A stretch of 40,539 bases of DNA from a virus (lineage: Duplodnaviria > Caudoviricetes), in the IMG/VR virus record IMGVR_UViG_3300016667_000290, positions 1 to 40,539 of that record. One strand, 5' to 3'. The notes beneath the pieces were generated by a model. That model had not been told where the DNA came from and ran no database searches. It saw nothing but the letters and a program-made list of their open reading frames with translations. Position 1 is the stretch's first letter, and each line of letters starts with the position of its first letter. This document shows, in pieces, positions 4,320-31,500 of this stretch. Position numbers and translations under genes: made by a program.

Positions 4320-4622
4320 ATGAGTTACAGCGAAGTCGAAATGAAAGTCATCCAGTGGGCCGAGGCTCGCCGGATCATCCCCAACGCCACACCCCAGGCG
4401 CAACTCAACAAGGCCCTCGAAGAGATGGCCGAACTCTTCAAGGCAGAAAGCCAGCAGAACATGGCCGGCATCAAGGATGGCGTGGGCGATGTGCTGGTCT
4501 GCATCATCAACTACTGCGCCCTCAAGGACATCGACCTCGTGACGTGCCTGGAGCTTGCCTACGAGGAAATCAAGGATCGCCGCGGCACCCTCATGCCTGA
4601 CGGAACTTTTGTCAAGGAGTGA
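4320..4622 (+). CDS. MazG-like nucleoside triphosphate pyrophosphohydrolase
   Basis: WAEAR...KALEEMAEL...DGVGDVLV...AYEEIKDRRG..DGTFVKE, containing the EExxE...DxxxD metal-binding pattern. Confidence 0.85.
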   Translation: MSYSEVEMKVIQWAEARRIIPNATPQAQLNKALEEMAELFKAESQQNMAGIKDGVGDVLVCIINYCALKDIDLVTCLELAYEEIKDRRGTLMPDGTFVKE

Positions 4623-6989: not shown

Positions 6990-7145
6990 ATGCGCACCAT
7001 GTCGCTACCCGAGGCCGCAGAGTTTCTCGGCCTGCACCCTGTCACGCTGCAACAGCGGGCGGCCTCGGAGGCCACTGCACGCAGCCTCCGAGGGTTACTT
7101 GGCGAGTTCGAGGCCGGCCCGCCCGCGCAACTCGCGCGGCGCTGA
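6990..7145 (+). pseudogene. Truncated excisionase-like HTH (HTH_17/MerR-type)
   Basis: MSLPEAAEFLGLHPVTLQQRA is an Xis-like HTH N-terminus. The expected wing (G.IP..K.G..W.F) is absent, and the frame runs into a hairpin and then antisense into the giant gene. Confidence 0.5.
7063..7093. terminator. Inverted repeat at the convergence of the two arms (possible bidirectional terminator)
   Basis: Perfect 10-bp stem CCTCGGAGGC / GCCTCCGAGG with an 11-nt loop, 1 nt from the giant gene stop; no U-tract. Confidence 0.5.
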
Positions 7146-10100
7146 CTTGATGATCCGGGCATCCTGATCAATCAGGTACTGGCGGGCGGCCTGACGCACC
7201 TGCTCGTTGTTGATGGCCACGGGCGTCTGCGGGTTCTTGGCGTTCCACTCCTTGAGTTGCTTGGCAGCTTCCTGCTGGAGCTTCTCATCCTTGGTGGCGA
7301 TGCCCCGGGCCCACATGTCCACGATGTCGGACTCGACGTTCTTTTGCAGAGCGCGATCCTGCATCACCGGGCCACGAGCGCGTGAGGCCTGGGCCAGCTT
7401 GGTCGGGTTGAACCCCACCGACTTGACCACGGCGTCGGCCAGGGTCACGTCCATGTTCTTGCGGCCCTTGGTGTCCTTGGCCGTGCCGGTGGTCGCCATA
7501 TCGACGCCCTGGGCCACGTCCTTGACCGCCTTGGGCGCCAAGCTCTGGATCGCCTTGCCGGTGTTGCCTGAGGTCTTGGCCTCGTAGGCGTCGTTGATCT
7601 GCTGGAGCAGCGAGCCAGCGGGGCCGACCACCTCGGTCACCTCGCGGATCTTGTTGCCCTCGGCCGAGGCCTTGAACAGCCCGGTGCCGGGGATCAGGTT
7701 GCCCAGCCCCAGGCGGCCGGAGAAGTCCAGCGGCAGCACCGACGACACGCCGTAGAGGAACAGGTCGCCACCGGTCTTGCCCAGGATCTCATAGGCCAGA
7801 CGGCGCTTGTTGCGCTTCACGTTGGTGTCGTACCCCATCATCTGGCCGATGGTGTCGATCAGGTCTTCGAGGTCTTGCGCGAACGGCAGGCCCTCTTCGC
7901 CGGCTGCCAGCATCAGCATGGCCATCATGATCAGCGCCGCACGCTTGCCCTCGGGCCCGCCCTTGGTGGCCATGCGCTTGACCAGTTCGACGTACATCAG
8001 GCTGAACTGCTTGAAGGTCAGCACCACGCGCCCGGTGGCGCTCCTTGCCAAGTTCGGGCGGTTCGCCTTGTTGTAGATGCCCTGCGTCTCGTTCACCGCC
8101 CGCACCGCGAAGGCGTAGGGGTTGGGATCCTTGTTGGCGATCGCCACGTTCCAGGCCGCGAGGAACGTGAGCTTGCGGTTGAAGGACTCGGCCACCGAGA
8201 ACATCATGCCCCAGAGGGTGAAGAAAGCCTCGGAGCGGGCACGCACGCCCTCGGTGCCGGCCTTGAGCTTGTTGCCCACCACCGGCAGCTTGGAGAGTGT
8301 GTTGGCCAGCTTGATCGACACACCCTGGGCCCCCTGGCTATACAGGTGGAAGATTTCTTGGGCTTCCACGATGCCTTCCTGGCTGGCACGCTTAAGCGCC
8401 TTGCGCAGGTCAGGGTCGGTGATCTGCTTGCGCCCCATGGCGATCAGGAACGCATTGGCCATGGCCTTTGCAGCGGTGCCCGGGCCGAACTGGGAGAGGT
8501 ACGGGCCGGTCATCAGCAGCGGCTGGGTCAAGTTGACCAGGGCCGAGGCCACCGAGCCGCCCAGGAACCAAGCAAACATGAGCGCCGACACCGGTGCAGC
8601 CGGGTCGTTGGGCGTCATCATGAACTCGCGCAGCTTGATCGCCTCGTCCATCACGTCACCCTTTTCTTTCGGGATGAACTTGATGGCGTTGTTCAGGTCG
8701 CGCAGGTAGTAACGCTGGGCGGCCATCCGGCCGTTGCTGGTGATGAAGTTGGAGAGGATGCGCGGCAGGTCGTCGCTGAAACCCTCGATCTTCTTGCGCT
8801 CCAGGCGGCGCTTGAGCGCAGACCGCTCGGCCAGGGCCTGCTTGTAATACTCGCGCATCACCTTGTCGGCGCCGACTTCCTCGGCAAACAGCGCCAGCGT
8901 CTCGGGCGAAATGCCGGAGTAGAGCTTGTAGGACTCGTTGCTCTTGACGCCCTTGCTCAACTTCACGCCAGTGTTGCCGGCGTACTTGACCTGCATCTCG
9001 TTGTACTTGGCATTCGCCTCGGCCTGCGTCTCGAACATGCCGAAGTAGTGCACCACGGCCTCGCCCTCGTCGTCGCGCACGAGGTTGCCCGTTTCCGGGT
9101 TCACTTCCTGCACGGTCACGGTGAACTGCCCGAAGCGCATCAGCGGCATGTAGCCCGCGGCCTTGAGTTCACGGGACTTGGCGAAGATAGCCTTCACCTT
9201 TTCCTCGGTGTCCTCGTAGGCCTTGATGGTTTCCTCCAGCGAGGCGATCTTCTCGTCGCTGGCTTCCTGCTCGCGGGCATTGTCCAGGGCCGCTTGCAGC
9301 AGCTTCTTGGCCTTGGCCAGCGCCCCGAAGATCACGTTGTTGGCCCGCTTGGGGTTGTCGATGATCTGGCGGCGGGACTGCTTGGGGATATAGCCCTGGG
9401 CCATGGCGTAGGCCTCGGCCGCTGCCACCTCTTCCAGGCTGGCGTCGATCGCGGCACGGCCCTGCTGGTACAGCGCCACGCCTGCGTCATCCAACTGGAA
9501 GTTGTTGCGCAGTTCCTCTTCCGTCCAGACCTTGCCATCGAGCACGGTCTTGCCATCCAGGGTGCCGGCCAGCATTGCATTGGTCGCGCCCTGCAAGCTC
9601 TTGTCGCGCACGTTGCCCATGGCCAGGGTCTTGATGGCCGAGCCGGAGTCATCCACCTTGCGCAGGATCCCTGGGGCCAACTCGGCGGGCCGGATCGAGG
9701 TCAAGCTCACCTCGTTCTGCATGGCGTTCACGAATGCGAACACCTTGCCGTAGTGCTCGTCCTTCAGGGCCTTGTTGAACTGGGTGGACAGGGTGCGATC
9801 GTAGAAGGAGAAGGTGCGCAGGTTGTCACGGTTGCCAAAGAACTGCGTCAGGTTGCGCTGCACCTTGCGGGTGATGTCCTGCACCGGGGGCAGGTCGCCT
9901 TCCTTCTTGACTTCCTTCTCGCCCAGCCACTGCTCGAAGTCCATGTCGCGCAGCATCTCGCCGGACTGGAAGCTGCCGTCGCCAGCCATCACGGCCTTCA
10001 GGCCCTGGATCACCGCGTTATCGGAGCGCAGGCCGAGCATGGCCTTGACGCGCTGCACGAACTCCTTGAGCCACTGGGCGGCACGGCTGACCCACAAGCC

Positions 10101-13100
10101 CTTGGCCGCGTAGCGCCCCGACAGAATGCGGGTGGCATTGACGGCCCAGAACTCAGACGGGCTGAAGAGTTGGTAGTGCTGGTCGTAACTGAGCACGCCG
10201 GTGCCGAAGGCCTGGGACACCCGCTTGCCTGCCTCCTTGTCGCCAAAAGCGGCGGCCAGCATGTCGCGCATGGCCTGCTGCTGGGCCTTGGTGGCCTTCT
10301 TGTACGCGGCGTCCCACTGGCGCTGCCACTCGCGCAGAATGGCCGCCTGCACCTCGCGGGGCATCATGGCCTCGGTGTGGTGCAGGATTTCATGAACCGC
10401 CGTGCCACCGCCGTCGAGGTTGGCCGAGAACAGGTACATGATCCGCTCAAACGGGCTGTACTCGCCCCGGGCGTTGCCGCCTTCCTTGCCGCTGATCGAA
10501 TAGCCGAGGTCGTTGGCCAGTTGCGGGTTCTGCTCCAGCAGCCACTGGGCGAAGTCAGCCTCGTAGCGAGGCACCATCCCATCGGCTACACCGCGGCGAA
10601 GCTGCGACACGATCCAGTCAGCACCCCGGCGCCGGCCGCGCTCGATTTCAGCCAGCACGCGCTCGTCGCGCTGGTCGTTGAGTTGGCGGGTCAGTTCGCG
10701 GGCGGCCAGGACGTACTCGGCTTCCGTGATCTTGCCGGCGTCCAGCTTCTTCTCCAGGGTGTTGAGCTTCTGGCGGGCTGCCACGCGCTTCTGCTCGGGC
10801 AGCACAGAGAATGCGATGGACGGGCTGCGCTTGAAGTCAAAGACGTTGTTGCCCTGGCGGCGGGCGTCCAGCCCCAGTAGCTCGTTCGGAGCCCACGGGC
10901 CAGCCTTACGCTGGCCACCGCTGAAGTACCGCACCTCAACCGGCAGCGATGCCTCGCCCAGTTCTCGGGCCACCATGATTCGGTGGTTGCCCTCGCTCAC
11001 CCAGGCGACACCGAACGGATCCACTTCGACGTAAACGGGCTCCTTCTTGACCTCATCCCAGTTTTCGCGGATGTACTTGAGCGAATCCTCGCGCACGTTC
11101 TCCTGCTCACCGCTCTCGCCCTTCAGGGTCGATAGCAGGTAGGTAGGCAGGTTCAGCGGGCGCTTGAAGTAGCCGGTGACCGAGCCCATGCGGCGCGGCA
11201 CGCCCCACTTGTTGCGGCCACCCTCTTCTGCGTCTTGCACCTTGCCGGCCAGCCAGTTCTCGTTGGGGATGTCCTCTTTGTAGACGGCGGGCTGGGCCAC
11301 GATGTCTTGCAGGTTCCCCTTGCCCTTCTGCTCGCCCAGCATCTGCTTGGCTTTGTCCAGATGGGTCAAGGCAACAATCGGCTCCTGGCGTCCGCTCATG
11401 ATGTACTCCAAGGCCTTCATCGCATCGTCTGCGTAGTAGACCTTGGCCACCATGATCGAGCCGCGTTTGTAGAAGTCGCCGGTGATGCTGGTCAGTTGCC
11501 GGTCGAGGTAATAGGTGCCGCCGTCTTTCTTGGAGGACGGCACAAAGAAATTGAACCCGGATCCGTGCTTGGTGACCTTGAATACGCCGTCCTCGGTGCC
11601 GACCGTTCCGCTGAAGTCTTCCACGAACTTGACGGCCATGAGTGCGCTATTCATGCGCACCGGCTGTTTGCTCATCTCCTTCTCGAAGTCGAACTGGCGC
11701 GACATCAGCACACCCTGGCCGGTGGTGCCGTCCTTGCGGGTGTAGGTGATGATCTGGCCCGGGAACTTGGCAAAGCCGCCAAGGATGTTCCCTGTCACGA
11801 TCCACCGCTTCTCGCGGCGCGAGTGGGTGCCCTTGTCGAACACGGTCAGCACCGATGTCAACTCAAGCTGCTGCGTCTCCGGGTTGAACCAGTGGATGCT
11901 GCGCTCTTGAGCCAGTTGGTACTTGGTGCTGATCTGGCTGAAAGTAAGGCTCAAGGTCTTGGCGTCACCGTTGGCCAGGGCAATCTGCATCTTCCAGTCC
12001 GAGCCGACAGCGGGGTTGGCCGTGCGCTTGGCCGGGTGGATGTCAGTGATGACCCCGTAGACGATCTGGCCGAGCTTGTCCTTGATCGAGATGCTCTGGC
12101 CGATGTGGTAGTTCTCCAGCACGGCCTTGGTGTTGTTCCAGATCATGTTGAGCAGGTTCTTCTGCGCCTCGATCCGCACTTGGTCGGCGTCAGGGGCCTG
12201 CTGCATCTTGGCCACGCGCTCCACGGCGTAGGCCTTGGCCCGCTCGTTGAGGTCTGCAATCTGCTCGGACGAAACCTGCTCCGCTGTCTTGCCGCCCAGG
12301 CGCTCATCCACCATGTCGAGCACTTCTTTCTGGGTGAACGGCTTGACCGTGCGCTTCACGTCCACCCGCTCCATGTTAGCGGGGCTGGCAAACACAGACG
12401 GGTCGCCCTTGTCCTCGGTGATCTGCTGGGTGCTGATCGTCTCGGCATCCAGATCAACGGCCTTGGCTTCGAGCTTGTTGGTGCCCAGGGTGTTCTCGCG
12501 CTCGATCAACTCGTTGTAGCGGTCGATCAGGTCGCGGTAGATTTCCTCCTGCTGCTTGATGGGCAGGATCGGGATGTAACCCGTGAGCTTCCGGATGTCG
12601 TCTTCAGTACCTTCTGACGAGTCCTCGGCCAGCGGCATGACCTTGCTGCCGCCGATGGCCTCCAGCACGTCCGGGTTGTCGCGCAGGTACTCCTGCACTA
12701 CCTGCCCGCCGTAGTCGTTCATGAAGTCCACCACGCCCTCGGCCGTCACCGAGGACTTGCGCGAGGCGGTGGTATTGGCGTTCAGCGACGCCATCTTCTT
12801 GAGCAGCACGGCAGCCGGCCGCATCTCGGCGGGCACGTCGGCCATCATCTGCGAGTAGGCCGGGGCGATCACCTGACCGGTGCGGTGCACACGTCCCAGC
12901 ATCTGCATGTGGGTGTCGATGTTCTTTTCGGCCTGGACAATGATCATGTGCCGCTTGCGCTGATCCTTGAACTTTGACGAAGCGTGCAGCGACAGACCGG
13001 TCGAACCGGCTTGGTTCAGGATGATTACGTCGATGTCTCCGTTGTTGAACCCGCGCACGGCGTTCACACGCTGTTTGATGGTGGCGCTGCGGCCGGTCAA

Positions 13101-16100
13101 CTTGGGGGCGCTGCCGTCGTAATTGATGGTGATCGTGCGGCCCGTGATTTCATCGGTTTTGTACCCTGCCCTGCGCAGTTCGGTGTGCAGGAAGTCGATC
13201 GGACTGATTGGCGCCGAGCCAAAGCCAGCATCCATGATCTGCTGGCGCACGGCCTCGAACTGGGCCACCAGGGCGGGGCCAAGCTCCTTGTCTGTCAGGC
13301 GGCGCTGGGTCTTGTTGCCGGCTGCGTCCTTGATCGTGACCATGCGCTGCTTGTCGAGGTAGCGCACATACAGGTCGGCAAACGACAGGGCCACCGGGTC
13401 GCCCACGTTCAGACCCATTTCCTCGGCGTAGTCCTTGAGGAATGAGCCCATGGTGTTCGATACCGTCATCACCACCTTCTCGCCGGCTTTTAGCCGCTCG
13501 ATGGCGTGGCGCACGCTGTCTTGGGCCTTGAGGGAGAGCAGCATCTGGTCGATCAGGTTGTGCATGATCGAGCCGAAGTTCGCGCCCTGGATGGTCGATT
13601 TCTCGCCACCCATCTCGCGGATCATCTGCCCCTCTTTGTCCATCTCCTTCTGGATGTTGGCGATCACCGCCTCTTTCGCACGGGAGAAGGCCAAGATCGA
13701 GCGCATGGCGATGGCCATGTTCTCGGCAGTCTGCTTTTCAACCTTGGTTTCGGTGGTGTCGTAGGACACCCCAGCAAAGGTGCGCTCGCGCCGGATGTAC
13801 TGGCCATCCATGGTCAGCATGTTGGCCACCACCTGCTGCATCGGCACGCCACCTAGCTTGATGGCTTCGGCCAACTGACTGAGCTTGTCCACAGCCAGCT
13901 TCATGTTTGTGCTGGAGTACAGATCCATCACGTCCGGGCGTTTTGCGTATGTGGCAGACGAGAAGAACGTTCCGTAGGCCCTGCCGACCAGCCCGCGCAC
14001 AAAAGCGGCGCGTCCGGTGACGAGGCTCTCGCCTTCCTTGGCTTTCTCTCGCTGCTCCTTGGTTCGAGCCTGAGTCTCTCCCGCCCCGCCGGCGTTGTGA
14101 GACTCATCAAAGATCATGTAGTTGCCGGCTCCGAACTGCTGCACGAACTTCATGCGCTGGGTGACCTTGCCTTTGTGCGTCTGCAACTGGCTGTACGTGG
14201 TGAAGATCACCTTGTATTCGCCCAGGCTCTCAGCCTCCATCATCCCCTTCATGAGGTCTTCCAACTCCTTGCCGGACTTAGGCGCCCGGAGAGTCAGGTT
14301 GTTCTCGGTCACCTCGCCGTTGACATCGCGCAGCAGGGTGTAAGGGATCGAGTCTTTGCTGTTGGTGATGAGGATGCGCGGCTTGTTTGTGTCCAGAGCC
14401 AGATCGTCGGTCATTCCGATGTCGTCCAGATCGCGGATCATGTCGGCGTATAGGTTCGGCTTCTCGGTGACAAAGATCGGTGTCTTGTCGTTGACCAGGG
14501 CGTAGCGGATCATGGCCGCCACCACGCGCCCCTTACCGATACCGGTCTGGTCGCCGATGATGAACCCGCGCCCTTCCTCGGCGTTCTTGATGGCCAGGGC
14601 CAATGCGTCCACCTGCTCTGCCGAGAAGTTGGATCGCACCGTCTCCGGATCCATGCTCAGGCGCTCGGCGACATACTCATCGAGGTTGCCGACCTGATCT
14701 TCCAGCTTCTGGAGCGATGCCTCGATGGCATCGCGCATGGCGCGAGGCACAAGCGTGCCTACGGATGACGCCTGCGAGTGAGGCGTGTACTCGACTTGGT
14801 TTTCTGTTTCCTGCTCTTCGCCCCGGCGGTCGTTCAGTCCAGATCCGACTCGCTCACCACTGACAACGCTTGCTCCACCCAGTCCATCAGATCCAGATTG
14901 AGCGCGTCCTTCACGTCCTGGCTGGGTTCCGTCACCACCCCCGGAAACGGGTGCTTGTCCGGCATTGCCAGTTCCATCTGCGTTCGCAGGTTTAGGTTGT
15001 GCAGTACCAGACTCTGCCCCGCTTGGTTCAGATACTCCGGTTGCGGGACGTTCAGCGCCTTGCACGCTTGCATCGTTTCCTGCTCCCCCGCCTTGTCCGC
15101 GAGTTCCTGCACCCGATCGGCCAGGGCTTCCCACCACTGGCGTTCCGTCACCGGCCCCGGCGGCAGCTTCACCGCTACCAGTTTCATCGGTACTGACATC
15201 CCCTTCGGTGCCCACGCTACGAGTGCCATTCAGCTTCTCCTTGAGTTCGTCATACGATCCGATCATCTTGGGCAGATCGGCGGCTGGCAGGTCACGCGAC
15301 GACTTGCCGCGCCCTTCGATGACGATGACATCCACCGGGTAGGACGCCCCTTGTTTGGAGTAAAGGGAGCCATCCACAGTGAAGTGGTCAACGACATTGT
15401 ATTGCTGGTAGAGGTTGAAGTAGAAGGCCCGCTTGTTCTTGCCGCGGTAGTCCTCCCGTCGCCCGTCCTCGCTGGTGGCGTTCGAGCCGCCGACGATCAG
15501 CACGGCGCGGCCGTCGTCCTTCATGGCTTCCAGCGCCTTGAATGCGATGGCGTGATCCACCTCGCGGGTGCCGTAGCTCGGGCTGACCTCGTAGACGATC
15601 GTGTTGCCCTGGTCGTCCTTGGTCGCGCCGAACGGGGGGTTGGCGATCACGGCGTCCTGGGACTTGGAAACAGCGAACACTTCCGTGGCCGCGTTCAGAC
15701 GATGTGCATTACGGAAACCCATGGCCCGCAGCATTTGGAATCGCTGACTGTTTAGTTCGTTAGCCGTAACTCGATCTGCGTTTGCTCCGATCAGCAGCAT
15801 CCCATTGCCAGCGGTAGGTTCAACCACACGGCTCTTGTCTGTGATTCCAGCCAGTTCCGAGGCCACGTAGGCCAGCGGCACAGGCGTGCTGTACGCCTGA
15901 TCGCGCACGCTGGTGGACGAGCGCACGGCGAGGTTGGGCTGGGCGTTGTAGAGGCTCACCAGCCGGTCGTAGATGACCTGGGGGCTGCGGCCCTGGGCGC
16001 GGCCTGCCTTGACCATCTCGCGTGCCGCCAGCACCACTGCCACCTCAATCGTCTCGTCGGCCTGCTTGGCCAGTTCGGTGCCCGGTTCGATCTTCTTGCC

Positions 16101-19100
16101 GATCAACTCTCCGATGCGCTTGCGGGCCTCGATGATGGTGGCGAAGCTCGCGCCGCCGATGAACTCGTCGGCCAGGGTCTGTGCCACCTTGAACTTGCCC
16201 TCGGCCGTGTGCAGGTCGGAGGGCTCGGCCACGGGCTCGGTTGAGGTTTCCTCAACTGCATCGACAAGCTCATCCAGCGACTCGACGGCGATCACTTCCT
16301 GCTTGCTGCTGGCCGTGCCCTCGGCTTGGTACTTGCCGGCCATGCCGATGTAGGAGCCTTGCAGGTGGTCGAGCGTGATCTGGTCAGCGGCCTCCTTGCC
16401 CAGCTTCTCGCGGATCGTCTTGAGCACGAACCGGGCGGCGTCCTTGAACTTGTAGTAGCCCAGCCGGAAGGCGGCGTCCATCACGCGGGTGAGCACGGGC
16501 AGCAGGCGCTGCTCATCCTCGGGCATGATGTTCATGCGCGTGCTTTTGCCCAGGATGTCGCCCAGGTCACCCAGGGCGGCTTCGAGGTCGGCCTGGGCCT
16601 TGGCCTTCTTGGCCTCGGCTTCGGTCTTGGGCTTTACCCCATCGGCTTCCACGGGTTGGCTGGAAGCTCCGGCAGCGGGTAGTCCTCCTTCGGTGGGGGA
16701 GGCGGCGGCAGTTTCTGCTGGTGCTTGCTCATTTTTCTGGTTTGTTAATACAGCAGTGGTGGTGTGCGGTGTTTTTGAACCGTCTGGTCGAATGCCGCCA
16801 GCGTCAGAAAATTCAGTTTCCGCAATTTTTTCAACCGGCACTCCGTCTTTGTATTGCTGCGAAGCACGAGGACTCATCTTTGTGACGTGACCATCGTCCG
16901 CTTGAAACACAAGTTGGCCAGTCAAATTATTGATTTCGATACGCCCGGTAATGGGCGCGTCAAAATCAAGTATGGAGTTTTCGAGCGTGATCTTTGGCGA
17001 CAACGTGCGCGATTGACTGACTTCACCATTGCGCGTAATGACAATGTGCGTGCCACGGTCGTCTGACTTGGTGTAACGGTTTACACCTTCAGGAAAGTTT
17101 GGCTCTCCAGTCTTGGCGTTAATCTTGTTTTCAGATTGTGTCCATCCAGTTGGATCAAACTTGTTTACTTGTCGTTCGGTTCCTCGTTGCGGCGTCGGTT
17201 GTTGCGCTTCTGCTTGCTGGGCTTGATCGGCTTGAGTGCCATTGCGTCTTTCCTTTGCTTCCTTCTCTGTGCGCGGCTTCACCGGCTCGAACGGGACATT
17301 CGAGTCGTCGGGCGCAGCTTCAACGGGCGTGTTGTTCTGGATCGCCTCGCGCTCCAGTCGTGCCTCGCGCTCGACCTCGGTTTCGTTTACCGGGGCGCCG
17401 GCTGGTAGGCCTTCGTATCGTTGGCCTGCTTCGGCACTGCCTTGGGCGCCTGGGGCTTGCCCTGCGGGTTCTTGCTGGGCGGCTGGCCCGCCTGGTTGCC
17501 CAGTTGCGCTGCCGGCATCTTGATTGAGTGCAGGCCCAGTTGCTTGGTCTTGGTTTGGAGTTTCATTTTGAGTTCCCGGTTGGTCGAAGCGGTAAATCCG
17601 GCGCAGCTTCGCCACGTCGTCGCCAGCCGCTTCAAGCTGGCTCAGTTCATCTTGCTCGGTGGGCGTCAGCGACCCGGGCACCTCGTCGGTGCCGGCCTGC
17701 TTGTCCATCAGGTAATCGAAGCGGGTCTGCCCGAACTCGCGCACATCGTCATCGGTGATGGCGTTGCTCGGGGCCGGCTCTTCCGGGCGATCGGCGTTGG
17801 TGCCCATCACGGCCGGGGGGTTGATGGCTGGCGCACCGGCGTCTTCCGCAGCGACCGTGCGCGACGGGATCGGCTGGCCACCGGGCATGTAGATCGTGCC
17901 GTCCGGGTTCATCGAGCGCACGACCTGCTCGTTGATGCCCTCTTTGGTGAACTCGCGGCTGTTGATGTCGGCGACCAGGGCCCGGGCAAACTGATCCTCG
18001 GGCATCTGGGCCTCGTTGAGGAACTGCACGCCGCGACTGACGCCGGTGGTGCCGCCAGCCGTGATGCCCGATTGCATGATGGTCTGGGCGATCGTGTCGG
18101 CCACCTGCTTCAGGTAGTCCGCGCCGGTGGCATTCGGGTTCAGGGCCACGCCTTTGCCGCCGAACTTGTCCACGGCGAACTGGCCGCTGGTGGTCAGCAC
18201 CTCGCCCGGGACTTCCTTCTTGAGCGCGGCCCACAGGAAGCCGGCAATCTGGTCGGCAGGCAGACCCTTTGCCGCTGCCTTGAAGGCCTTGAGCGTCTCG
18301 CCCAGGCCGAACTTCTCGCCCACCAACTCAAAGGCGGCGAAGAGCGCGGCCCGGGTGGTGGCGTCCTGAACCGACTGGCCTTTGGCCTTGCCGTCGCTGT
18401 ACTCCTGGCCGAAGGTCTGGAGCGCCATGCCGGCCAGGGGGATTGCCTGCGAGGCAACGGCCGCGCCGCCGATCAGCAGCGGCAACTGCTGGGCGATGCT
18501 GTTGATGGCGCCTTCGAGGTTGCGCTCAAGGAAGGTTCCGGACTCTCCGATCGCCTCTTCTTTGCCGCGCAGGAACTTGCCGCCCTCGCGCATGGTCTTG
18601 CCGGCCTCGTCCAGGCCCATCGTGTCGGACAGGAACTCGCCGTAGCCGGCAGCCGCCTTGCCGAGCCCCAGGCCGGCCTTGGCCAGACCGCGCACCAGGG
18701 GGTTGTTCAAGCCGTTGGAGCCGCCCTGCTGGTCGAACAGTTGCTTGGTGTCGAAGTCGAACGTGGACTCCTGGGCCACGCCGCCGCGCTGCATGAACGG
18801 AATCTCGGCGCCCGGGTTCACCCCGGCGGCAGCCGACATCCTGCCCGCCGTCTCGGCAAAGCGCGGATCTTCACCTGCGGCAGCCAGCCGGCCGGCGCGG
18901 CCCTCGGCCCGGGTGTCGAGCGTCTTGGTGGTCGGCGTGGCGTTCTGGTCGGCACGCTCAAAGATCCCGGCCCGCTCCCGGGCCAGCATCCCCATCCAGT
19001 CCGGGCGGCCGGCCATGGTCTGGCGCTGCTCGGGGGTGGCGGCGTCCCACGCCTTGTTGAACTCGGCCCGCACCTCGGGGCGCACCGGCACCTTGCTGGT

Positions 19101-20015
19101 GGTCGGCAGGTCTGGCGCCGGGGGCACGTTGCCCTCCAGCACCGACTCGCGCTTCTTGCCAGCCGTGTTGATGCCTGGGTTCGGGTAGATGCCGAATGCG
19201 GCCTTGCCGGCCTGCTCCAGTTCGGCTGCCGTGGGCTCGCCAGTCTTGCCACCGACCGGGGCGGCAGCACCGCCCAGGAAACGCTGGCGCAACTCGCCTG
19301 CCTGCTGGCCGGCGTTCGGGGCGATCCAGTAGTCGAAATAGGCCGCTTTGGTCTGCGCCTGCACCTCCGGGGTGAGCGCCTGAAACTCCGGCTTGGCCTC
19401 AACGTCGGCCCACTTGGGCGCCTTGCCCAGGTCGGGGGTGGCCGGGGCCGCGTTGGCCGATGGGATCACGTTGCCCAGCCGGGCCAGCACGTCGCTGACG
19501 TAGCTCGACACGCGCTTGCCGTTGCCGTCTGCCCGGTCGGCTTTCCATGCCGTGCCCTGGCCGCCGACGTTGCCCTCGCCGGAGAAATACCCGGTGGCGA
19601 TCTTGGCGGGGTCGTCGCCGAACTTGGTGCCCAGGTCTTTCACGATCCGCGCCATGACGGCGAGGTTGTGCTCGGTGTTGTCGATGCTCTCACCGGGCTT
19701 GGCGTACTGCCGGAACGTCCCGGGCATGATCTGGCCAGCGCCGCGTGCACCGTCCACGCTGGTAGCCGTGTTGCGCCCGCCGCCGGACTCCTGTTGCAGG
19801 AGCGCGGCCATAACCTTGCGCTGCGCTGGGCTCAGACCCTCACGGTCAGCGACCGAGCCGATGGCAGACTCATCGAGGGGCTCGACCGGGGCGCTGCTGC
19901 GGGGGGCTCTGGGCTGTGCCAGAAGGTCGCCGAACCCGCCGCCGGAGGGGGCTGGAATCGAACCAGAACTAGAGGTGGGTTTGAGAAGATCGCCGAAGTT
20001 TTGATTCGATTCCAT
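7095..20015 (-). CDS. Giant DarB-like polyvalent virion/ejection protein (4306 aa): lytic transglycosylase, adenine-type MTase, strawberry-notch-like SF2 helicase, ParB-like, zincin-like and PLxRFG domains
   Basis: QESGG...GAGQIMPGT (SLT, ~19480-19830); EPTAGNG and ANPPFG (~15630-15820); GDQTGIGKG, DESH, SAT and QMLGRVHRTGQ (~12870-14560); EGNHR (~10985); HEILHH (~10385); PLMRFG (~9140). Confidence 0.9.
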   Translation of the reverse strand: MESNQNFGDLLKPTSSSGSIPAPSGGGFGDLLAQPRAPRSSAPVEPLDESAIGSVADREGLSPAQRKVMAALLQQESGGGRNTATSVDGARGAGQIMPGTFRQYAKPGESIDNTEHNLAVMARIVKDLGTKFGDDPAKIATGYFSGEGNVGGQGTAWKADRADGNGKRVSSYVSDVLARLGNVIPSANAAPATPDLGKAPKWADVEAKPEFQALTPEVQAQTKAAYFDYWIAPNAGQQAGELRQRFLGGAAAPVGGKTGEPTAAELEQAGKAAFGIYPNPGINTAGKKRESVLEGNVPPAPDLPTTSKVPVRPEVRAEFNKAWDAATPEQRQTMAGRPDWMGMLARERAGIFERADQNATPTTKTLDTRAEGRAGRLAAAGEDPRFAETAGRMSAAAGVNPGAEIPFMQRGGVAQESTFDFDTKQLFDQQGGSNGLNNPLVRGLAKAGLGLGKAAAGYGEFLSDTMGLDEAGKTMREGGKFLRGKEEAIGESGTFLERNLEGAINSIAQQLPLLIGGAAVASQAIPLAGMALQTFGQEYSDGKAKGQSVQDATTRAALFAAFELVGEKFGLGETLKAFKAAAKGLPADQIAGFLWAALKKEVPGEVLTTSGQFAVDKFGGKGVALNPNATGADYLKQVADTIAQTIMQSGITAGGTTGVSRGVQFLNEAQMPEDQFARALVADINSREFTKEGINEQVVRSMNPDGTIYMPGGQPIPSRTVAAEDAGAPAINPPAVMGTNADRPEEPAPSNAITDDDVREFGQTRFDYLMDKQAGTDEVPGSLTPTEQDELSQLEAAGDDVAKLRRIYRFDQPGTQNETPNQDQATGPALNQDAGSATGQPGGPAAQQEPAGQAPGAQGSAEAGQRYEGLPAGAPVNETEVEREARLEREAIQNNTPVEAAPDDSNVPFEPVKPRTEKEAKERRNGTQADQAQQAEAQQPTPQRGTERQVNKFDPTGWTQSENKINAKTGEPNFPEGVNRYTKSDDRGTHIVITRNGEVSQSRTLSPKITLENSILDFDAPITGRIEINNLTGQLVFQADDGHVTKMSPRASQQYKDGVPVEKIAETEFSDAGGIRPDGSKTPHTTTAVLTNQKNEQAPAETAAASPTEGGLPAAGASSQPVEADGVKPKTEAEAKKAKAQADLEAALGDLGDILGKSTRMNIMPEDEQRLLPVLTRVMDAAFRLGYYKFKDAARFVLKTIREKLGKEAADQITLDHLQGSYIGMAGKYQAEGTASSKQEVIAVESLDELVDAVEETSTEPVAEPSDLHTAEGKFKVAQTLADEFIGGASFATIIEARKRIGELIGKKIEPGTELAKQADETIEVAVVLAAREMVKAGRAQGRSPQVIYDRLVSLYNAQPNLAVRSSTSVRDQAYSTPVPLAYVASELAGITDKSRVVEPTAGNGMLLIGANADRVTANELNSQRFQMLRAMGFRNAHRLNAATEVFAVSKSQDAVIANPPFGATKDDQGNTIVYEVSPSYGTREVDHAIAFKALEAMKDDGRAVLIVGGSNATSEDGRREDYRGKNKRAFYFNLYQQYNVVDHFTVDGSLYSKQGASYPVDVIVIEGRGKSSRDLPAADLPKMIGSYDELKEKLNGTRSVGTEGDVSTDETGSGEAAAGAGDGTPVVGSPGRSGAGTRGQGGGAGNDASVQGAERPATGVSEPSGAESGTAQPKPANADGTGNAGQAPVSGGGDGTQPGREGRAQSGSDGLGGASVVSGERVGSGLNDRRGEEQETENQVEYTPHSQASSVGTLVPRAMRDAIEASLQKLEDQVGNLDEYVAERLSMDPETVRSNFSAEQVDALALAIKNAEEGRGFIIGDQTGIGKGRVVAAMIRYALVNDKTPIFVTEKPNLYADMIRDLDDIGMTDDLALDTNKPRILITNSKDSIPYTLLRDVNGEVTENNLTLRAPKSGKELEDLMKGMMEAESLGEYKVIFTTYSQLQTHKGKVTQRMKFVQQFGAGNYMIFDESHNAGGAGETQARTKEQREKAKEGESLVTGRAAFVRGLVGRAYGTFFSSATYAKRPDVMDLYSSTNMKLAVDKLSQLAEAIKLGGVPMQQVVANMLTMDGQYIRRERTFAGVSYDTTETKVEKQTAENMAIAMRSILAFSRAKEAVIANIQKEMDKEGQMIREMGGEKSTIQGANFGSIMHNLIDQMLLSLKAQDSVRHAIERLKAGEKVVMTVSNTMGSFLKDYAEEMGLNVGDPVALSFADLYVRYLDKQRMVTIKDAAGNKTQRRLTDKELGPALVAQFEAVRQQIMDAGFGSAPISPIDFLHTELRRAGYKTDEITGRTITINYDGSAPKLTGRSATIKQRVNAVRGFNNGDIDVIILNQAGSTGLSLHASSKFKDQRKRHMIIVQAEKNIDTHMQMLGRVHRTGQVIAPAYSQMMADVPAEMRPAAVLLKKMASLNANTTASRKSSVTAEGVVDFMNDYGGQVVQEYLRDNPDVLEAIGGSKVMPLAEDSSEGTEDDIRKLTGYIPILPIKQQEEIYRDLIDRYNELIERENTLGTNKLEAKAVDLDAETISTQQITEDKGDPSVFASPANMERVDVKRTVKPFTQKEVLDMVDERLGGKTAEQVSSEQIADLNERAKAYAVERVAKMQQAPDADQVRIEAQKNLLNMIWNNTKAVLENYHIGQSISIKDKLGQIVYGVITDIHPAKRTANPAVGSDWKMQIALANGDAKTLSLTFSQISTKYQLAQERSIHWFNPETQQLELTSVLTVFDKGTHSRREKRWIVTGNILGGFAKFPGQIITYTRKDGTTGQGVLMSRQFDFEKEMSKQPVRMNSALMAVKFVEDFSGTVGTEDGVFKVTKHGSGFNFFVPSSKKDGGTYYLDRQLTSITGDFYKRGSIMVAKVYYADDAMKALEYIMSGRQEPIVALTHLDKAKQMLGEQKGKGNLQDIVAQPAVYKEDIPNENWLAGKVQDAEEGGRNKWGVPRRMGSVTGYFKRPLNLPTYLLSTLKGESGEQENVREDSLKYIRENWDEVKKEPVYVEVDPFGVAWVSEGNHRIMVARELGEASLPVEVRYFSGGQRKAGPWAPNELLGLDARRQGNNVFDFKRSPSIAFSVLPEQKRVAARQKLNTLEKKLDAGKITEAEYVLAARELTRQLNDQRDERVLAEIERGRRRGADWIVSQLRRGVADGMVPRYEADFAQWLLEQNPQLANDLGYSISGKEGGNARGEYSPFERIMYLFSANLDGGGTAVHEILHHTEAMMPREVQAAILREWQRQWDAAYKKATKAQQQAMRDMLAAAFGDKEAGKRVSQAFGTGVLSYDQHYQLFSPSEFWAVNATRILSGRYAAKGLWVSRAAQWLKEFVQRVKAMLGLRSDNAVIQGLKAVMAGDGSFQSGEMLRDMDFEQWLGEKEVKKEGDLPPVQDITRKVQRNLTQFFGNRDNLRTFSFYDRTLSTQFNKALKDEHYGKVFAFVNAMQNEVSLTSIRPAELAPGILRKVDDSGSAIKTLAMGNVRDKSLQGATNAMLAGTLDGKTVLDGKVWTEEELRNNFQLDDAGVALYQQGRAAIDASLEEVAAAEAYAMAQGYIPKQSRRQIIDNPKRANNVIFGALAKAKKLLQAALDNAREQEASDEKIASLEETIKAYEDTEEKVKAIFAKSRELKAAGYMPLMRFGQFTVTVQEVNPETGNLVRDDEGEAVVHYFGMFETQAEANAKYNEMQVKYAGNTGVKLSKGVKSNESYKLYSGISPETLALFAEEVGADKVMREYYKQALAERSALKRRLERKKIEGFSDDLPRILSNFITSNGRMAAQRYYLRDLNNAIKFIPKEKGDVMDEAIKLREFMMTPNDPAAPVSALMFAWFLGGSVASALVNLTQPLLMTGPYLSQFGPGTAAKAMANAFLIAMGRKQITDPDLRKALKRASQEGIVEAQEIFHLYSQGAQGVSIKLANTLSKLPVVGNKLKAGTEGVRARSEAFFTLWGMMFSVAESFNRKLTFLAAWNVAIANKDPNPYAFAVRAVNETQGIYNKANRPNLARSATGRVVLTFKQFSLMYVELVKRMATKGGPEGKRAALIMMAMLMLAAGEEGLPFAQDLEDLIDTIGQMMGYDTNVKRNKRRLAYEILGKTGGDLFLYGVSSVLPLDFSGRLGLGNLIPGTGLFKASAEGNKIREVTEVVGPAGSLLQQINDAYEAKTSGNTGKAIQSLAPKAVKDVAQGVDMATTGTAKDTKGRKNMDVTLADAVVKSVGFNPTKLAQASRARGPVMQDRALQKNVESDIVDMWARGIATKDEKLQQEAAKQLKEWNAKNPQTPVAINNEQVRQAARQYLIDQDARIIKSAPRELRGRAGLELAK
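14834..15229 (-). CDS. Nested +1-frame ORF (131 aa) inside a giant-gene linker
   Basis: AAGGAG-7nt-ATG; GC3-rich in this frame while the host frame is a G/A/S/E-rich linker; globular-looking sequence (RQWWEALADRVQELAD...LMDWVEQAL). Confidence 0.65.
   Translation of the reverse strand: MALVAWAPKGMSVPMKLVAVKLPPGPVTERQWWEALADRVQELADKAGEQETMQACKALNVPQPEYLNQAGQSLVLHNLNLRTQMELAMPDKHPFPGVVTEPSQDVKDALNLDLMDWVEQALSVVSESDLD
16634..16732 (-). CDS. Nested +1-frame micro-ORF (32 aa, Pro-rich)
   Basis: MSKHQQKLPPPPPPKEDYPLPELPANPWKPMG*; ATG inside a host AAT-G; no clear SD. Confidence 0.3.
   Translation of the reverse strand: MSKHQQKLPPPPPPKEDYPLPELPANPWKPMG
17165..17242 (-). CDS. Nested +1-frame micro-ORF (25 aa, basic)
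   Basis: AAGGA-8nt-ATG; MALKPIKPSKQKRNNRRRNEEPNDK*; same AATGGCACTC start context as the 131-aa nested ORF. Confidence 0.4.
   Translation of the reverse strand: MALKPIKPSKQKRNNRRRNEEPNDK
17387..17566 (-). CDS. Nested +1-frame ORF (59 aa, K/Q/P-rich)
   Basis: GGGA-7nt-ATG; codons CTC ACC AAG CTG GGC CAG CCG are typical of this phage, while the host frame is A/T3-rich here. Confidence 0.4.
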   Translation of the reverse strand: MKLQTKTKQLGLHSIKMPAAQLGNQAGQPPSKNPQGKPQAPKAVPKQANDTKAYQPAPR

Positions 20016-20023
20016 GAGGCTTC

Positions 20024-21166
20024 TTACTGTGAAGGGACGCCGATTAGGGAGTTGATACGCGGGTCTACCGTACCAGTCCCGAGTGTGCCCGGGGTCGGGC
20101 TATTTGATTTCGGCGCGGGCGACCCTTGCATTTGGCGCAGATCGTCGTAGACCTTGCCGGCCTCGTCGGCAACGACCTTCGGATCCTTGCCCAGGCCGCC
20201 GTTCTTGGCCACGTAGTCGAGCACAAAGCTACTGCGCGTTTTCTCGCGTGCCGAGCGCACGTGTTCCCAGGCCTCGCTCGGATTCTTGGCAACGCCCTTG
20301 GACATGAGCCACTCCATGGTCTGCACCTCGGCCGGGGTGTGCTGGGCGTGGCGAGCTTTCGGATCGCCCTGGTGCGTCTGGGTGACCGCGCCGGTCTTCT
20401 TGTTGCCCGAGTACACGTTGCCGTAGGAGTCGTGGATGAACTGGTACTCACCGGTCTTGAGCTTGCCAATGGCCGACTGGAACGCCTGAACTGGCACGAA
20501 GCGCGTGGTGCCGTCCGTGGTGGTGAACTGGTAGCCGTCGCCCTCGGGGCCACCGCGCACCGGAGTGATGTCGGAGAACGTCTTGCCGTTGGTGTTCGGC
20601 AGGATGTCGGTTTCCTGCGCGATCTGGTTGGCGAAGTCGATTGCCCCGGCCTTGTCCTGGGAGGCGATCAGTTGGCCCAGGGTGCCCAGCACCACGTCCG
20701 ACTGCCCGCGTGCGTCGAGCTTGCCCTGCACCGCGGCCATGCGCAGCTTTTGGGGAAGCTGCTTGATGTCGTGCTGCGATGTCAGGAACTGGCCTTCCAG
20801 CAGATTGTTCTGGATCGCCTGGGTCTTGGGCAGGTTGGTCTGCTGGTTCTGAGCATTCGACAGGCCGATGCTGGCGGTGATGTCCTTGGTCTGCTCTTCG
20901 ACGGGCTGACGCGCCTGCTGGCCAGCTAGGCCGGTGGACTCGATCTTGAGGCGGGTGCTCTTGTTGGCCGTCTCCTGCGGCAGCGTGTCCAGGCCGGCGG
21001 TGTTCTGCCCGGTGCGCAGCCGGTAGCCGGTTCGCTCCGATTCAGTTTTCTCGGGCAGCGTGGAAAGCTCCGCGTCACGCTTGGCCTGAAGGTACTCGCG
21101 CTCTTTGCGGGCATCGCCCGCCTTGAAGTAGCTGTCCAGAGCAGCCAAACCCATTCCGATGTCCAT
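20024..21166 (-). CDS. Putative internal virion / ejection protein (~380 aa)
   Basis: AAGGAG-5nt-ATG at 21166; Q/T-rich helical N-half; lies between a pilot-like gene and the giant protein. Confidence 0.6.
   Translation of the reverse strand: MDIGMGLAALDSYFKAGDARKEREYLQAKRDAELSTLPEKTESERTGYRLRTGQNTAGLDTLPQETANKSTRLKIESTGLAGQQARQPVEEQTKDITASIGLSNAQNQQTNLPKTQAIQNNLLEGQFLTSQHDIKQLPQKLRMAAVQGKLDARGQSDVVLGTLGQLIASQDKAGAIDFANQIAQETDILPNTNGKTFSDITPVRGGPEGDGYQFTTTDGTTRFVPVQAFQSAIGKLKTGEYQFIHDSYGNVYSGNKKTGAVTQTHQGDPKARHAQHTPAEVQTMEWLMSKGVAKNPSEAWEHVRSAREKTRSSFVLDYVAKNGGLGKDPKVVADEAGKVYDDLRQMQGSPAPKSNSPTPGTLGTGTVDPRINSLIGVPSQ
20082..20107 (-). promoter_or_regulatory. Putative late promoter for the giant gene
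   Basis: TCAAATAGCC-N10-CACACT, same spacing as the four other copies. Confidence 0.6.
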
Positions 21167-28566: not shown

Positions 28567-31500
28567 TCAGGCCTCCAGTGCAGACAGGCGGGCTTCGAGC
28601 TCAACCACCTTGCGAGCCAGTGCGACGGCAGCGGCCAGGGCCACGTTGCCGTAGGCCACCGACAGATACTTCTCGCCATCGATCACACCTTCAGGCGCAA
28701 CCGACTGAAGGCTCTGCGCGGACACACCGATCTGGCGCACGTCGTTGTCGATGCGCGTGTAGGTGCCCGTCTTCACATCGGCCAGCTTGGTGATGAAGTC
28801 GCTCGGCAGATCATCCCAGTCTTTCTTGAGGCGCTCGTCCGAGTAGGCGGTGACGTTGCCAGTCACCGTGAGATCGGAAGATGCACTCAACGACATCTGC
28901 TGGGTGAACGTGATCGTGGAGTTGGCAGCAAGCGATGCGGCGCCGTTCCACGTATGGACGTTGCCATCAATCGAGTACATACCGCTGGCGCCAGTGGAGT
29001 TTGTCGTCCATGGCGCGGCGTAGCGAGCGTTACAGGCGAGGACAATCGATTGGGACAGACTGCTCAGCACAGGGAACTGAGGCAGGCAAACGTGAGACGT
29101 TGCCAGCGATGACAGCATCGGCGTGCCGAGAGCAGTGTTGGCGCCAGCGGTGCTCAGGTTGCCTGACGAGTCGACGGTGAGTTTGTCGCCAGGATTGGAG
29201 GCGCTCTGCCACAACAGCTTAAAAGTGCTGCCGGTGCTGTACAGGCCCCACGAGTTGGACGTGTTGCTGCGGTCTTGGAAGTTGACCGCCGCGCTGGTGC
29301 CGGTGGCCGTGTAAGTGGTCGAGGAAATCGCCCCGGTGAAGGTTGCTCCGGACAGCGCGGCATAGTTGGCAATGGTCGCGTATGCGCCAGTCCCAAGCGT
29401 GCCACCGGCCCCGATGTTCAGGGTCGAGCCATCGGTGCCAGCGAGCGTCAGGTTGTTGCTGACGGTCAGGGTCTTGGACGTGGTGCCGCCCGCGATCTGG
29501 AAGCCGGTGGCGTTCGCCGTGAGGGTCAGGCCGTTGTAGGTCTTGCCGGTCAGGGCGCTCGGGATGTCGCCGTCCACGATCGCGTTCCAGCCTGGAGCCG
29601 CGGACACGGAGCCCGTGCCGGTCTGGGTCAGGAACCGCTTGCTGGTGGTCGTGTTGCCGGCCAGCCGCACGGCATTGGAGCCGTTGTGGTAGTTGATGTC
29701 GCCCAGCGTGGTCGATGGGGTCAGCGCGTTGAATGCGGCCGTCTTGCTGGTCTGCCCGGTGCCGCCGTAGCTGATGCCGATGGCGCTGCCCTGCCACGTG
29801 CCGGTGCCGATGGTGCCCAGCGTCGTGATGCTGGCCGAGCCCACGGACGGGGCGTAGGCCGTGCTGGCCGTGAACGCCGCGCTGCCCAGGGTGCCGCCCG
29901 CGCCGATGTTCAGCGTCGAGGCGTCCGTGCCGGCCAGGGTGAGCGTGTTGCTGACCGTGAGGGTCTTGCTGCTGGTGCCGCCGGCAATGGTGAACCCGGT
30001 GGTCGCTGCGGTCAGCGTAAGCCCGTTGTAAGTCTTCCCGGTGAGCGCGGCCGGGATGTCGCCGTCCACCAGCCCGTCCCAGGCCGGGGCGGCCGACACG
30101 GTGCCGGTGCCGGTCTGGCGCAGGAATCGGCGGCTGCTGCTGGTGCTACCGGCCAGCCGCACGTTGTTCGTGCCGTCTGAGTAGATCAGATCGCCCAGGG
30201 TGGTCGTCGGCGAAAGCGCGTCGAACGCAGCCGTCTTGGTGGTCTGGCCAGTGCCGCCCTTGGCGATGCCGACCGTGTTGAGCGACAGGCTGATAGTGCC
30301 GCTGCTGGTGATCGGGCTGCCAGTCACCGACAGGTCGGACGAGCTAACCGCAACGCTGGTGACCGACCCGCTGGTGGTCGTGGCCCAGTCGAATGCGGTG
30401 CCATTCCAGCGCAGGTAGGTGTTTGACGACACCGGCGCGGTCACAAAGCCCGTTGCCCCGCTGCCAGTCTGGTATGGGATGCGGTTGGCGCCGCCGCCGG
30501 AAAGGTTCGTGGCCGTGGTCGCGCTGCCCGCCGTGGTGGCCGAGGCGGCCGAGCCGTCGATGCTGGTGATGCCGGTCAGGGCGATCGCGCCCGAAGCCCG
30601 GTTGATGGCGATCGACGTGGTGCCCAGGAAGAAGGTCTGATTGTTGAGCGGGATCGTCCCGGTCACACTGGGGAACGTGAGCGTGGTGCCATCGGTGCCA
30701 GCAAAGGTCATGCTGTTTTGCACCGTGAGCGTCTTGCTGGCCGTGCCGCCGGCCACGGAGAACCCCGAGGCGTTGGCGGTCAGCGTCAGGTTGTTGTAAG
30801 TCTTGCTGGTGAGCGCCGATGGCAGGTCGCCGTCGAGGATCGCCGAGGCCGACCACGTGTTGACACCGGTTCGGCGCACGAAGCCGGTGGTTGACAAAGC
30901 CTCAACTGCTGCCAGATCGTCAGCCAGGGCCAGGGTCGGGTTGCCCGACACGCCATCGCCGTTGGTGATGGTCAGGCCGGCGGCCGGCACGCCAATCGTG
31001 CGCACGGCCACGGCGCCCGACCCGGTGCGGGCGATCAGGCCGTTGGCGGCCAGCGCGGCCAGCGCGGTCAGGTCGGAGTCCAGGGGCTGGTAGCCTGCCG
31101 ACAGATCCGAAAGCAGGGCGATGGTGCCGCTGGCGTTGGGGACGGTCAGCGTGCGCGTCGTGCCGGTGGCCACGCCCGACACCTCGAAAGCAAGCTGCTT
31201 GGTCGGGTCGCCGTTGTCCACAAACCGGGTGGTCGAGTCCAGCGAGTTGATCGTGACGCCGGTGATGGTGCCGCCGGTGATGTTGACGGCGCTGGCGTCC
31301 TGGGTCGCCAGGGTGCCCAGGCCGAGGTTGGTGCGGGCTGCCGAGGCGCTGGCCAGATCCGAGAGGTTGTTTTCCTTCTGGAGCATGGCCAGGGCCGTCG
31401 CGGCCGTCCAGCGCAACTCGATGTAGCAGGTGTCAACGCCGGAGCGGGCGCGGGACGATGTGCCGTCTTGGCCACGCACAATCGTCCAGTTGACCCCGGC

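Follow-up and report, generated by a model that had tools for sequence, protein, structure and literature searches.

Do the low-complexity linkers of a giant phage gene hide further genes, read from the same strand in a shifted frame? The question is raised by the last gene of a podophage structural operon on the - strand of IMG/VR virus record IMGVR_UViG_3300016667_000290. The window, by which we mean the whole 40,539-nucleotide stretch analysed, is spanned by a virus record that is 66% complete, and the gene (20015-7095) encodes a 4306-aa polyvalent protein. An earlier note on the sequence had drawn attention to four +1-frame open reading frames (ORFs) in its linkers, and proposed either that they are expressed nested genes or that the polyvalent protein grew by engulfing small neighbours. 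As judged from comparison with relatives, 3 of the 4 are maintained by selection as separate proteins. The host gene, the 4 ORFs and their signals are as follows, SD standing for a Shine-Dalgarno site.

7095..20015, - strand: giant DarB-like polyvalent gene, 4306 aa, the host frame (ORF; Pfam SLT, AAA_34, Helicase_C_4; PHROG DarB-like and DNA methyltransferase)
14834..15229, - strand: nested +1 gene, 131 aa, acidic (-9), predicted mostly helical, in the methylase-helicase linker; real by comparison with relatives
15237..15242, - strand: SD (AAGGAG) of the 131-aa ORF, Lys-Glu in the giant frame (duplex; SD word in 64/65 relatives)
16634..16732, - strand: nested +1 ORF, 32 aa, proline-rich; unproven (codon-usage shift, no SD, no homologue)
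16656..17165, no strand: low-GC cassette of the giant gene, strain-variable, containing the start of the 32-aa ORF (GC profile; strain comparison)
17165..17242, - strand: nested +1 ORF, 25 aa, basic (+6), M-[AS]-LKP[LI]KPSKQ family; real by conservation
17251..17255, - strand: SD (AAGGA) of the 25-aa ORF (sequence; duplex -5.6)
17387..17566, - strand: nested +1 ORF, 59 aa, basic (+9), K[QS][LM]GLH family; probably real

All 4 ORFs lie where the earlier note had placed them, on the - strand in the +1 frame of 20015-7095 and each starting within an AAT-G, and the signals it described, AAGGAG-N7 (15229), AAGGA-N8 (17242) and the common start context AATGGCACTC, are present. Its suggestion that codon bias moves from the giant to the +1 frame is also borne out: the G+C content at third codon positions (GC3) of the giant frame falls from ~0.88 to 0.32-0.50 across these stretches, part of the drop (~17165-16750) being a foreign low-GC cassette and not +1 coding. 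Among 22 alternative-frame ATG ORFs of at least 20 aa, exactly these 4 are closer to the codon usage of the gene than is the giant frame over the same stretch. Pairing with the anti-SD is -8.5 at 15229, the strongest among 56 +1 ATGs, and -5.6 at 17242; it is weak at 17566 (-4.3) and absent at 16732 (+1.6). An open 131-codon +1 frame is not significant on its own (P ~0.22, under the gene's codon usage and for this window only), and the evidence for the 131-aa gene therefore rests on its relatives.

A protein search recovered 21 relatives of the 131-aa protein (43-90% identity, mostly full length, with the same start), and a profile of the family gave 120 matches. Viral loci were also collected by host-frame motifs, the best 80 of 495 being taken; together with earlier loci, 86 of 91 sequences could be parsed, giving 65 distinct nested peptides. 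Left out of the 65 were an Acinetobacter record, duplicates and 4 loci missed by the motifs (L032, L045, L072, L077), each of which has, by eye, a +1 ORF at the same place. In a fixed window of 75 codons, the +1 frame is open in 64 of the 65 distinct loci and the +2 frame in none, compared with 92 of 1823 control windows and with 20 of 65 expected under the gene's codon usage. Frequent +1 stops in homologous linkers, which the earlier note had said would speak against nested genes, are thus not seen. The start lies 44 codons past the methylase anchor in 44 of the 65, and 64 carry the SD word. The ratio of nonsynonymous to synonymous differences (pN/pS) is 0.35 in the +1 frame versus 1.20 in the giant frame (22 close pairs, 37 core members), and 0.51-0.65 versus 1.25-1.44 in more distant bins, the direction being alike in all 4 identity bins. 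Across the gene, GC by codon position is that of a normal gene displaced by one base. With frame, SD and start kept in relatives and pN/pS lower in the +1 frame, the 131-aa ORF reads as a real nested gene with its own initiation site.

The AlphaFold2 model of its product is confident (predicted local distance difference test, 89.9; predicted template modelling score, 0.85) and is mostly helical with a small sheet. Shorter forms of 88-111 aa are remote homologues (hhalign 91%, E 9e-7). Foldseek gave no match to the model at E 0.001 in PDB or BFVD, a result that does not in itself show a novel fold; the best VIA Z was only 3.4, and Pfam, PHROG and PADLOC hold no family for the protein.

For the 25-aa ORF, a degenerate pattern of the +1 peptide matched 119 viral stretches and a degenerate pattern of the giant frame matched 3, a contrast that is asymmetric because the giant-frame pattern was drawn from few sequences. 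For this reason we place the weight on start codons, which lie outside the pattern: 106 of 108 distinct matches have one two codons ahead of it (ATG 46, GTG 46, TTG 14), against a background of 8.5%. An SD word precedes 79 of the 108, versus 7.9% of 6476 control starts, while the host (-1) frame is open along the whole available sequence in 99. Family pN/pS is 0.63 in the +1 frame versus 0.93 in the giant frame, and in a close strain with 6 changed codons in this gene, the +1 frame has 3 silent changes, 1 Ile-Leu and 2 others, where the giant frame has all 6 changed. Only 6 of 74 flanks match the giant protein of the window, so the peptide (family median charge +7) also occurs in other giant genes; it is present in gp31 of the cultured Pseudomonas phage USP_18 (MT491207.1, start at 30400). 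We regard the 25-aa ORF as real by conservation. The same gp31 holds a second candidate nested +1 ORF, of 128 aa and protein-like (L256 14257; MT491207.1 32656).

The 59-aa ORF is probably real as a gene, its own SD in the window being weak. The family has 10 distinct homologues including the window, a set chosen on the motif; all start with ATG, 8 have GGAG upstream, and all lie within long open frames. Identity is 50% in the +1 frame versus 37% in the giant frame, and pN/pS 0.71 versus 1.26. Other candidates of the same kind are a basic ~105-aa +1 ORF family in L069, L083 and L088 (giant aa ~880-910), a helical-looking 54-aa +1 ORF in gp3 of Bacteroides phage BS-TP4 (L009 5194), and many more in high-GC loci (75 in +1, 2 in +2).

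The 32-aa ORF (16732-16634) is unproven. It has no SD and no homologue among 22,235 segments of the collected loci, and its start lies inside the cassette 16656-17165, which is swapped in a close strain. Hence, of the earlier note's first proposal, that the ORFs are expressed genes, what stands is that 3 of them appear to be genes under selection, each with its own initiation; for the 32-aa ORF, the proposal finds no support. The cassette itself is replaced by 642 other letters in a near-identical strain (one contig, run X2), and as a low-GC, in-frame segment it looks like polymorphic domain swapping in the giant gene.

What the 131-aa protein does is best approached from the gene that houses it. 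The giant protein runs from an SLT domain through an N6-methylase and a Strawberry-notch helicase to a DarB-like C-terminal part, with the following domains.

19557..19817, - strand: SLT transglycosylase domain, aa 67-153 (PF01464, E 2e-7)
15231..15902, - strand: N6-adenine methyltransferase, aa ~1372-1595 (motifs TPVP, EPTAGNG, NPPF; PHROG matches)
12480..14630, - strand: Strawberry-notch-type SF2 helicase, aa 1796-2512 (PF13872, PF13871; Walker A GDQTGIGKG, DESH)

With an N6-methylase fused to an SF2 helicase within a virion gene cluster, the gene bears the marks of a DarB-like polyvalent protein. Profile searches also find the 131-aa family in all 4 cyanobacterial plasmids that were examined, nested in the methylase-helicase linker as here, each copy with its SD and ATG: Gloeobacter (E 6e-11), Chroococcidiopsis (2e-11), Picosynechococcus PCC 7002 (pAQ6, NC_010480.1, 101013-100507; 5e-4) and Acaryochloris (5e-3), with 8 of 459 plasmid hits retrieved for inspection. 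There is a weak nested match in the gp3 linker of Bacteroides phage BS-TP4 (E 6e-3) and a possible nested copy in Thalassospira (E 0.2). The plasmid copies are detected by profile only; tblastn gave no matches for the 131-aa protein in GenBank phages or for two family members in plasmids. Taken together, these matches put the family at one and the same position in phages and plasmids from several bacterial phyla. Since it is nested in cyanobacterial plasmids, the gene appears to travel with the enzyme pair and not with capsid genes. The Gloeobacter copy has been annotated by RefSeq (WP_230844304.1), which cuts the host frame there although it is open; on this plasmid, pGMOR1 (L259 3207-3656), RefSeq thus calls the nested gene and omits the half of the host gene that encodes the methylase. 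In pGMOR1, the stop codon of the nested gene overlaps with a Met codon of the host frame. Re-initiation of the helicase at the nested stop was rejected as a general device, a giant-frame Met being there in 0 of 65 loci. In L261 and L262, toxin-antitoxin genes (RelE/ParE and HigB, by annotation) lie directly upstream of the plasmid methylase-helicase genes.

Free copies of the gene are rare. Of 35 loci from the nested profile, 26 are nested, 8 are free or fused (7 distinct) and 1 is spurious. One free copy follows type I hsdR, with upstream bases that resemble the methylase end (L091); another follows an MrcB_N/NOV_C gene (L107); a third belongs to an integrase element, where the former giant frame has stayed open (L098); and two have a small membrane gene on one side and a Cys-rich gene on the other (L094, L104), the Cys-rich gene being fused to the domain in P0073. 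The Cys-rich small protein has no Pfam family (L094 1955-2323; L104 2469-2825; P0073). In database proteins, the domain follows membrane segments, an ankyrin domain, T5orf172 (Piscinibacter WP_128000194.1) or unknown domains, or it precedes a YbjN/type III chaperone fold (E 8e-4, prob 1.0); MORN is also a partner. In all 3 of the 3' ends compared, similarity to the window stops at the nested stop codon. The family tree (134 columns, unrooted) needs 10 nested/free changes, at least 5 of them forced by strong branches, and one fused domain is 67% identical to the window's copy versus 53-55% to its own fusion-family mates, which suggests repeated capture.

Our preferred reading, to which we give a probability of about 40%, is that, in the producing cell, the 131-aa protein may restrain or chaperone the methylase-helicase as its cognate partner, because the gene is tied to this module across phages and plasmids, is acidic, and has repeatedly been moved into host-type contexts. 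No internal sigma-70 promoter was found on the coding strand at 14500-18200. The late mRNA of the giant gene would serve translation of all 3 nested genes, and the linker would have arisen by read-through, or insertion, of a small gene. The 131-aa protein would bind the methylase-helicase module whose linker encodes it, holding the enzyme in check in the producer and releasing it after transfer into a new host; hosts and other elements might capture the gene for use as a sensor or decoy. Going by their charge only, the two short basic peptides likely bind nucleic acid or an acidic protein in virion assembly. Two computations are neutral: a predicted complex of the 131-aa protein with the methylase and the helicase N-lobe, modelled without the C-lobe, scored 0.00 and favours neither side, and mirror-tree correlations of 0.87 versus 0.85 favour neither methylase nor helicase, linkage explaining both.

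Several points count against a cognate partner. The module occurs without the nested gene in Acinetobacter MD-2021a, Vogesella, Cupriavidus and Persicobacter, which makes the partner not obligatory. No more than 2 of the 7 distinct free copies adjoin restriction genes, and the family was found in 0 of 400 further genomes of one bacterial family. The direction of the nested/free moves is read from an unrooted tree of few columns; the acidity is partly imposed by the Gly-rich giant frame; and the relatives are not independent samples, though the frame contrast persists within pairs. A larger picture, which as a whole we hold to be doubtful, would have giant conflict proteins, whether injected or transferred, organised around regulators of their own. 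An embedded gene for a safety catch of undescribed fold would have left the methylase-helicase linker as its by-product; bacteria and satellites would repeatedly have stolen this catch and joined it to membrane anchors, to ankyrin, and to nuclease-like and chaperone domains, to serve as a decoy or sensor for the incoming phage enzyme.

A rather doubtful alternative keeps the protein in the conflict and changes its target: it would be an effector against the restriction enzymes of the host, co-delivered and working as an acidic DNA mimic in the manner of Ocr or ArdA. The family is acidic (61 of 62 members are net negative), it is embedded in a gene of anti-restriction type, and free copies lie directly behind type I hsdR and MrcB_N genes. 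Yet a net charge of -9 is modest, the conserved residues are W, P, G, N and L rather than acidic ones, and a protein made late would have to be packaged for early action.

How the linker came about bears on another alternative, which we consider unlikely, namely that an unrelated small gene between, or inserted into, the methylase and helicase genes was engulfed and kept as a passenger for a role of its own. Linkers are longer where the nested gene is longer (r 0.89, slope 0.91, n=54), for which reason engulfment is favoured over overprinting, and the linker remainder of 226 codons compares with 241 in the nested-free Vogesella plasmid gene. We infer that the linker was born by reading the small gene in the -1 frame, the giant frame there being merely kept open. 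Split methylase and helicase genes, nested-free fusions and free copies of the family all exist, and other linkers are occupied by other, unrelated +1 ORFs. What speaks against a mere passenger is that the site is the same in phages from several GC classes, in cyanobacterial plasmids and probably also in a Bacteroides phage, and that the family is seen nested at no other site. The earlier note's second proposal, engulfed neighbours, thus survives in that the size of the methylase-helicase linker follows that of the nested gene, and elements lacking the gene have a short or different linker; the note's two alternatives do not exclude each other. In 7 loci with long linkers (L052, L057, L061, L069, L073, L083, L088), an extra in-frame domain lies between the nested gene and the helicase.

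That the protein serves the giant protein as an adaptor in virion assembly or packaging, comparable to Ulx of P1, strikes us as quite improbable. The gene does lie in a late structural operon, Ulx is described as helping DarB localisation in the passages of PMC9024508 that treat it, and the features of the 131-aa protein in the ESM Atlas are nearest to portal-protein fragments (0.96), a weak lead with fewer than 170 shared features; the atlas gave no feature lead for one fusion partner. The nested homologues on cyanobacterial plasmids, in shorter genes and with no virion context in the regions examined, weaken this packaging role, which the earlier note had also entertained.

We think it very unlikely that a programmed +1 frameshift appends the +1 ORF as a tail, giving one product of the giant N-terminus, the methylase and the 131 aa. 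An internal SD is able to stimulate +1 shifting, as is established for prfB, and the fused forms show that the domain tolerates N-terminal partners; but a +1 stop stands immediately ahead of the ATG in the window and many relatives, ATG, GTG and TTG occur at constant SD spacing, and stand-alone copies begin at the same place. The weakest notion, that a Gly/Ala/Pro-rich linker merely leaves the +1 frame open, fits the P of ~0.22 for this window but has next to no chance against the conserved starts and SD, the predicted fold and the free-standing homologues, and for the 131-aa and 25-aa ORFs it is refuted, since selection is specific to the +1 frame and the start codons interchange; for the 32-aa ORF, it is the likeliest reading.

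Nesting has a bacterial precedent in comS, which lies within srfAB. Embedded genes as such are already known, going by the descriptions of Rz1, ShiLan and GndA considered here. Rz1 is embedded in Rz in lambda-type and Bcep22-like spanins (PMC9144972, spanin passages), where a small gene likewise lies fully within another, is read out of frame with it from the same strand, and both products are retained. Those are short genes for a two-part membrane spanin, whereas here several genes for predicted soluble proteins occupy the linkers of a 13-kb multi-enzyme gene; the host is an enzyme, and the nested proteins are predicted to be soluble helical or basic, without a signal- or lipobox-like start. 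In the ShiLan case (PMC11855218), an HNH gene lies out of frame inside an actinophage methylase gene, and there too the host frame of a phage DNA methylase reads through as a loop. That insert is a sporadic homing endonuclease, whereas the gene described here occupies an interdomain position and is carried by nearly every relative examined (64 of 65 loci, the majority collected via host-frame motifs), forms without it being seen only among distant plasmid genes. The 131-aa protein has no Pfam or PHROG nuclease match and no conserved His/Asn catalytic pattern. GndA, an altORF product of E. coli gnd (bioRxiv 10.64898/2026.10.22.760973, in the part consulted), is also a nested small protein with its own start and acts on the product of its host ORF, a precedent for the action we favour; unlike our case, it is a single chromosomal microprotein outside the conflict proteins of mobile elements. 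The host gene resembles the methylase-helicase dyad of polyvalent proteins, including P1 DarB, in having an N6-methylase followed by an SF2 (Strawberry-notch) helicase in a virion operon (PMC5512222, main text). Ulx is encoded beside DarB and required for its handling (PMC9024508, same passages), as a separate neighbouring gene unlike the 131-aa gene, and PHROG and Pfam give no link between the two proteins. The passages on the host protein class in PMC5512222, PMC9144972 and PMC9024508 mention no nested genes, the main text of PMC5512222 having no match to "overlap" and one, unrelated, to "reading frame". Our literature search found no description of such nested genes, with subscription papers and supplements (notably that of PMC5512222) outside its scope.

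The "disordered linkers" of polyvalent phage and plasmid proteins may, then, be in part a hidden layer of genes, one that annotation cannot show because gene callers keep one frame. What this layer yields is a protein family without a fold match, a basic 25-aa peptide in more than 100 phage sequences, a reason for the existence of the linkers, and candidate defence modules among the free and fused copies. The cultured systems concerned are Pseudomonas phage USP_18, Bacteroides phage BS-TP4 and Picosynechococcus PCC 7002 plasmid pAQ6. The window sequence itself occurs in sequencing runs of freshwater metagenomes, and no RNA datasets are listed among the runs that contain it. Elsewhere in the window, antisense ORFs at 7875-10880 + (1001 aa) and 17421-20150 + (909 aa) are probably shadows of high GC3, a MazG-like gene lies at 4320-4622, and a gene resembling the Thoeris anti-defence gene Tad2 lies at 2125-2610 + (PF11195, E 5e-24).

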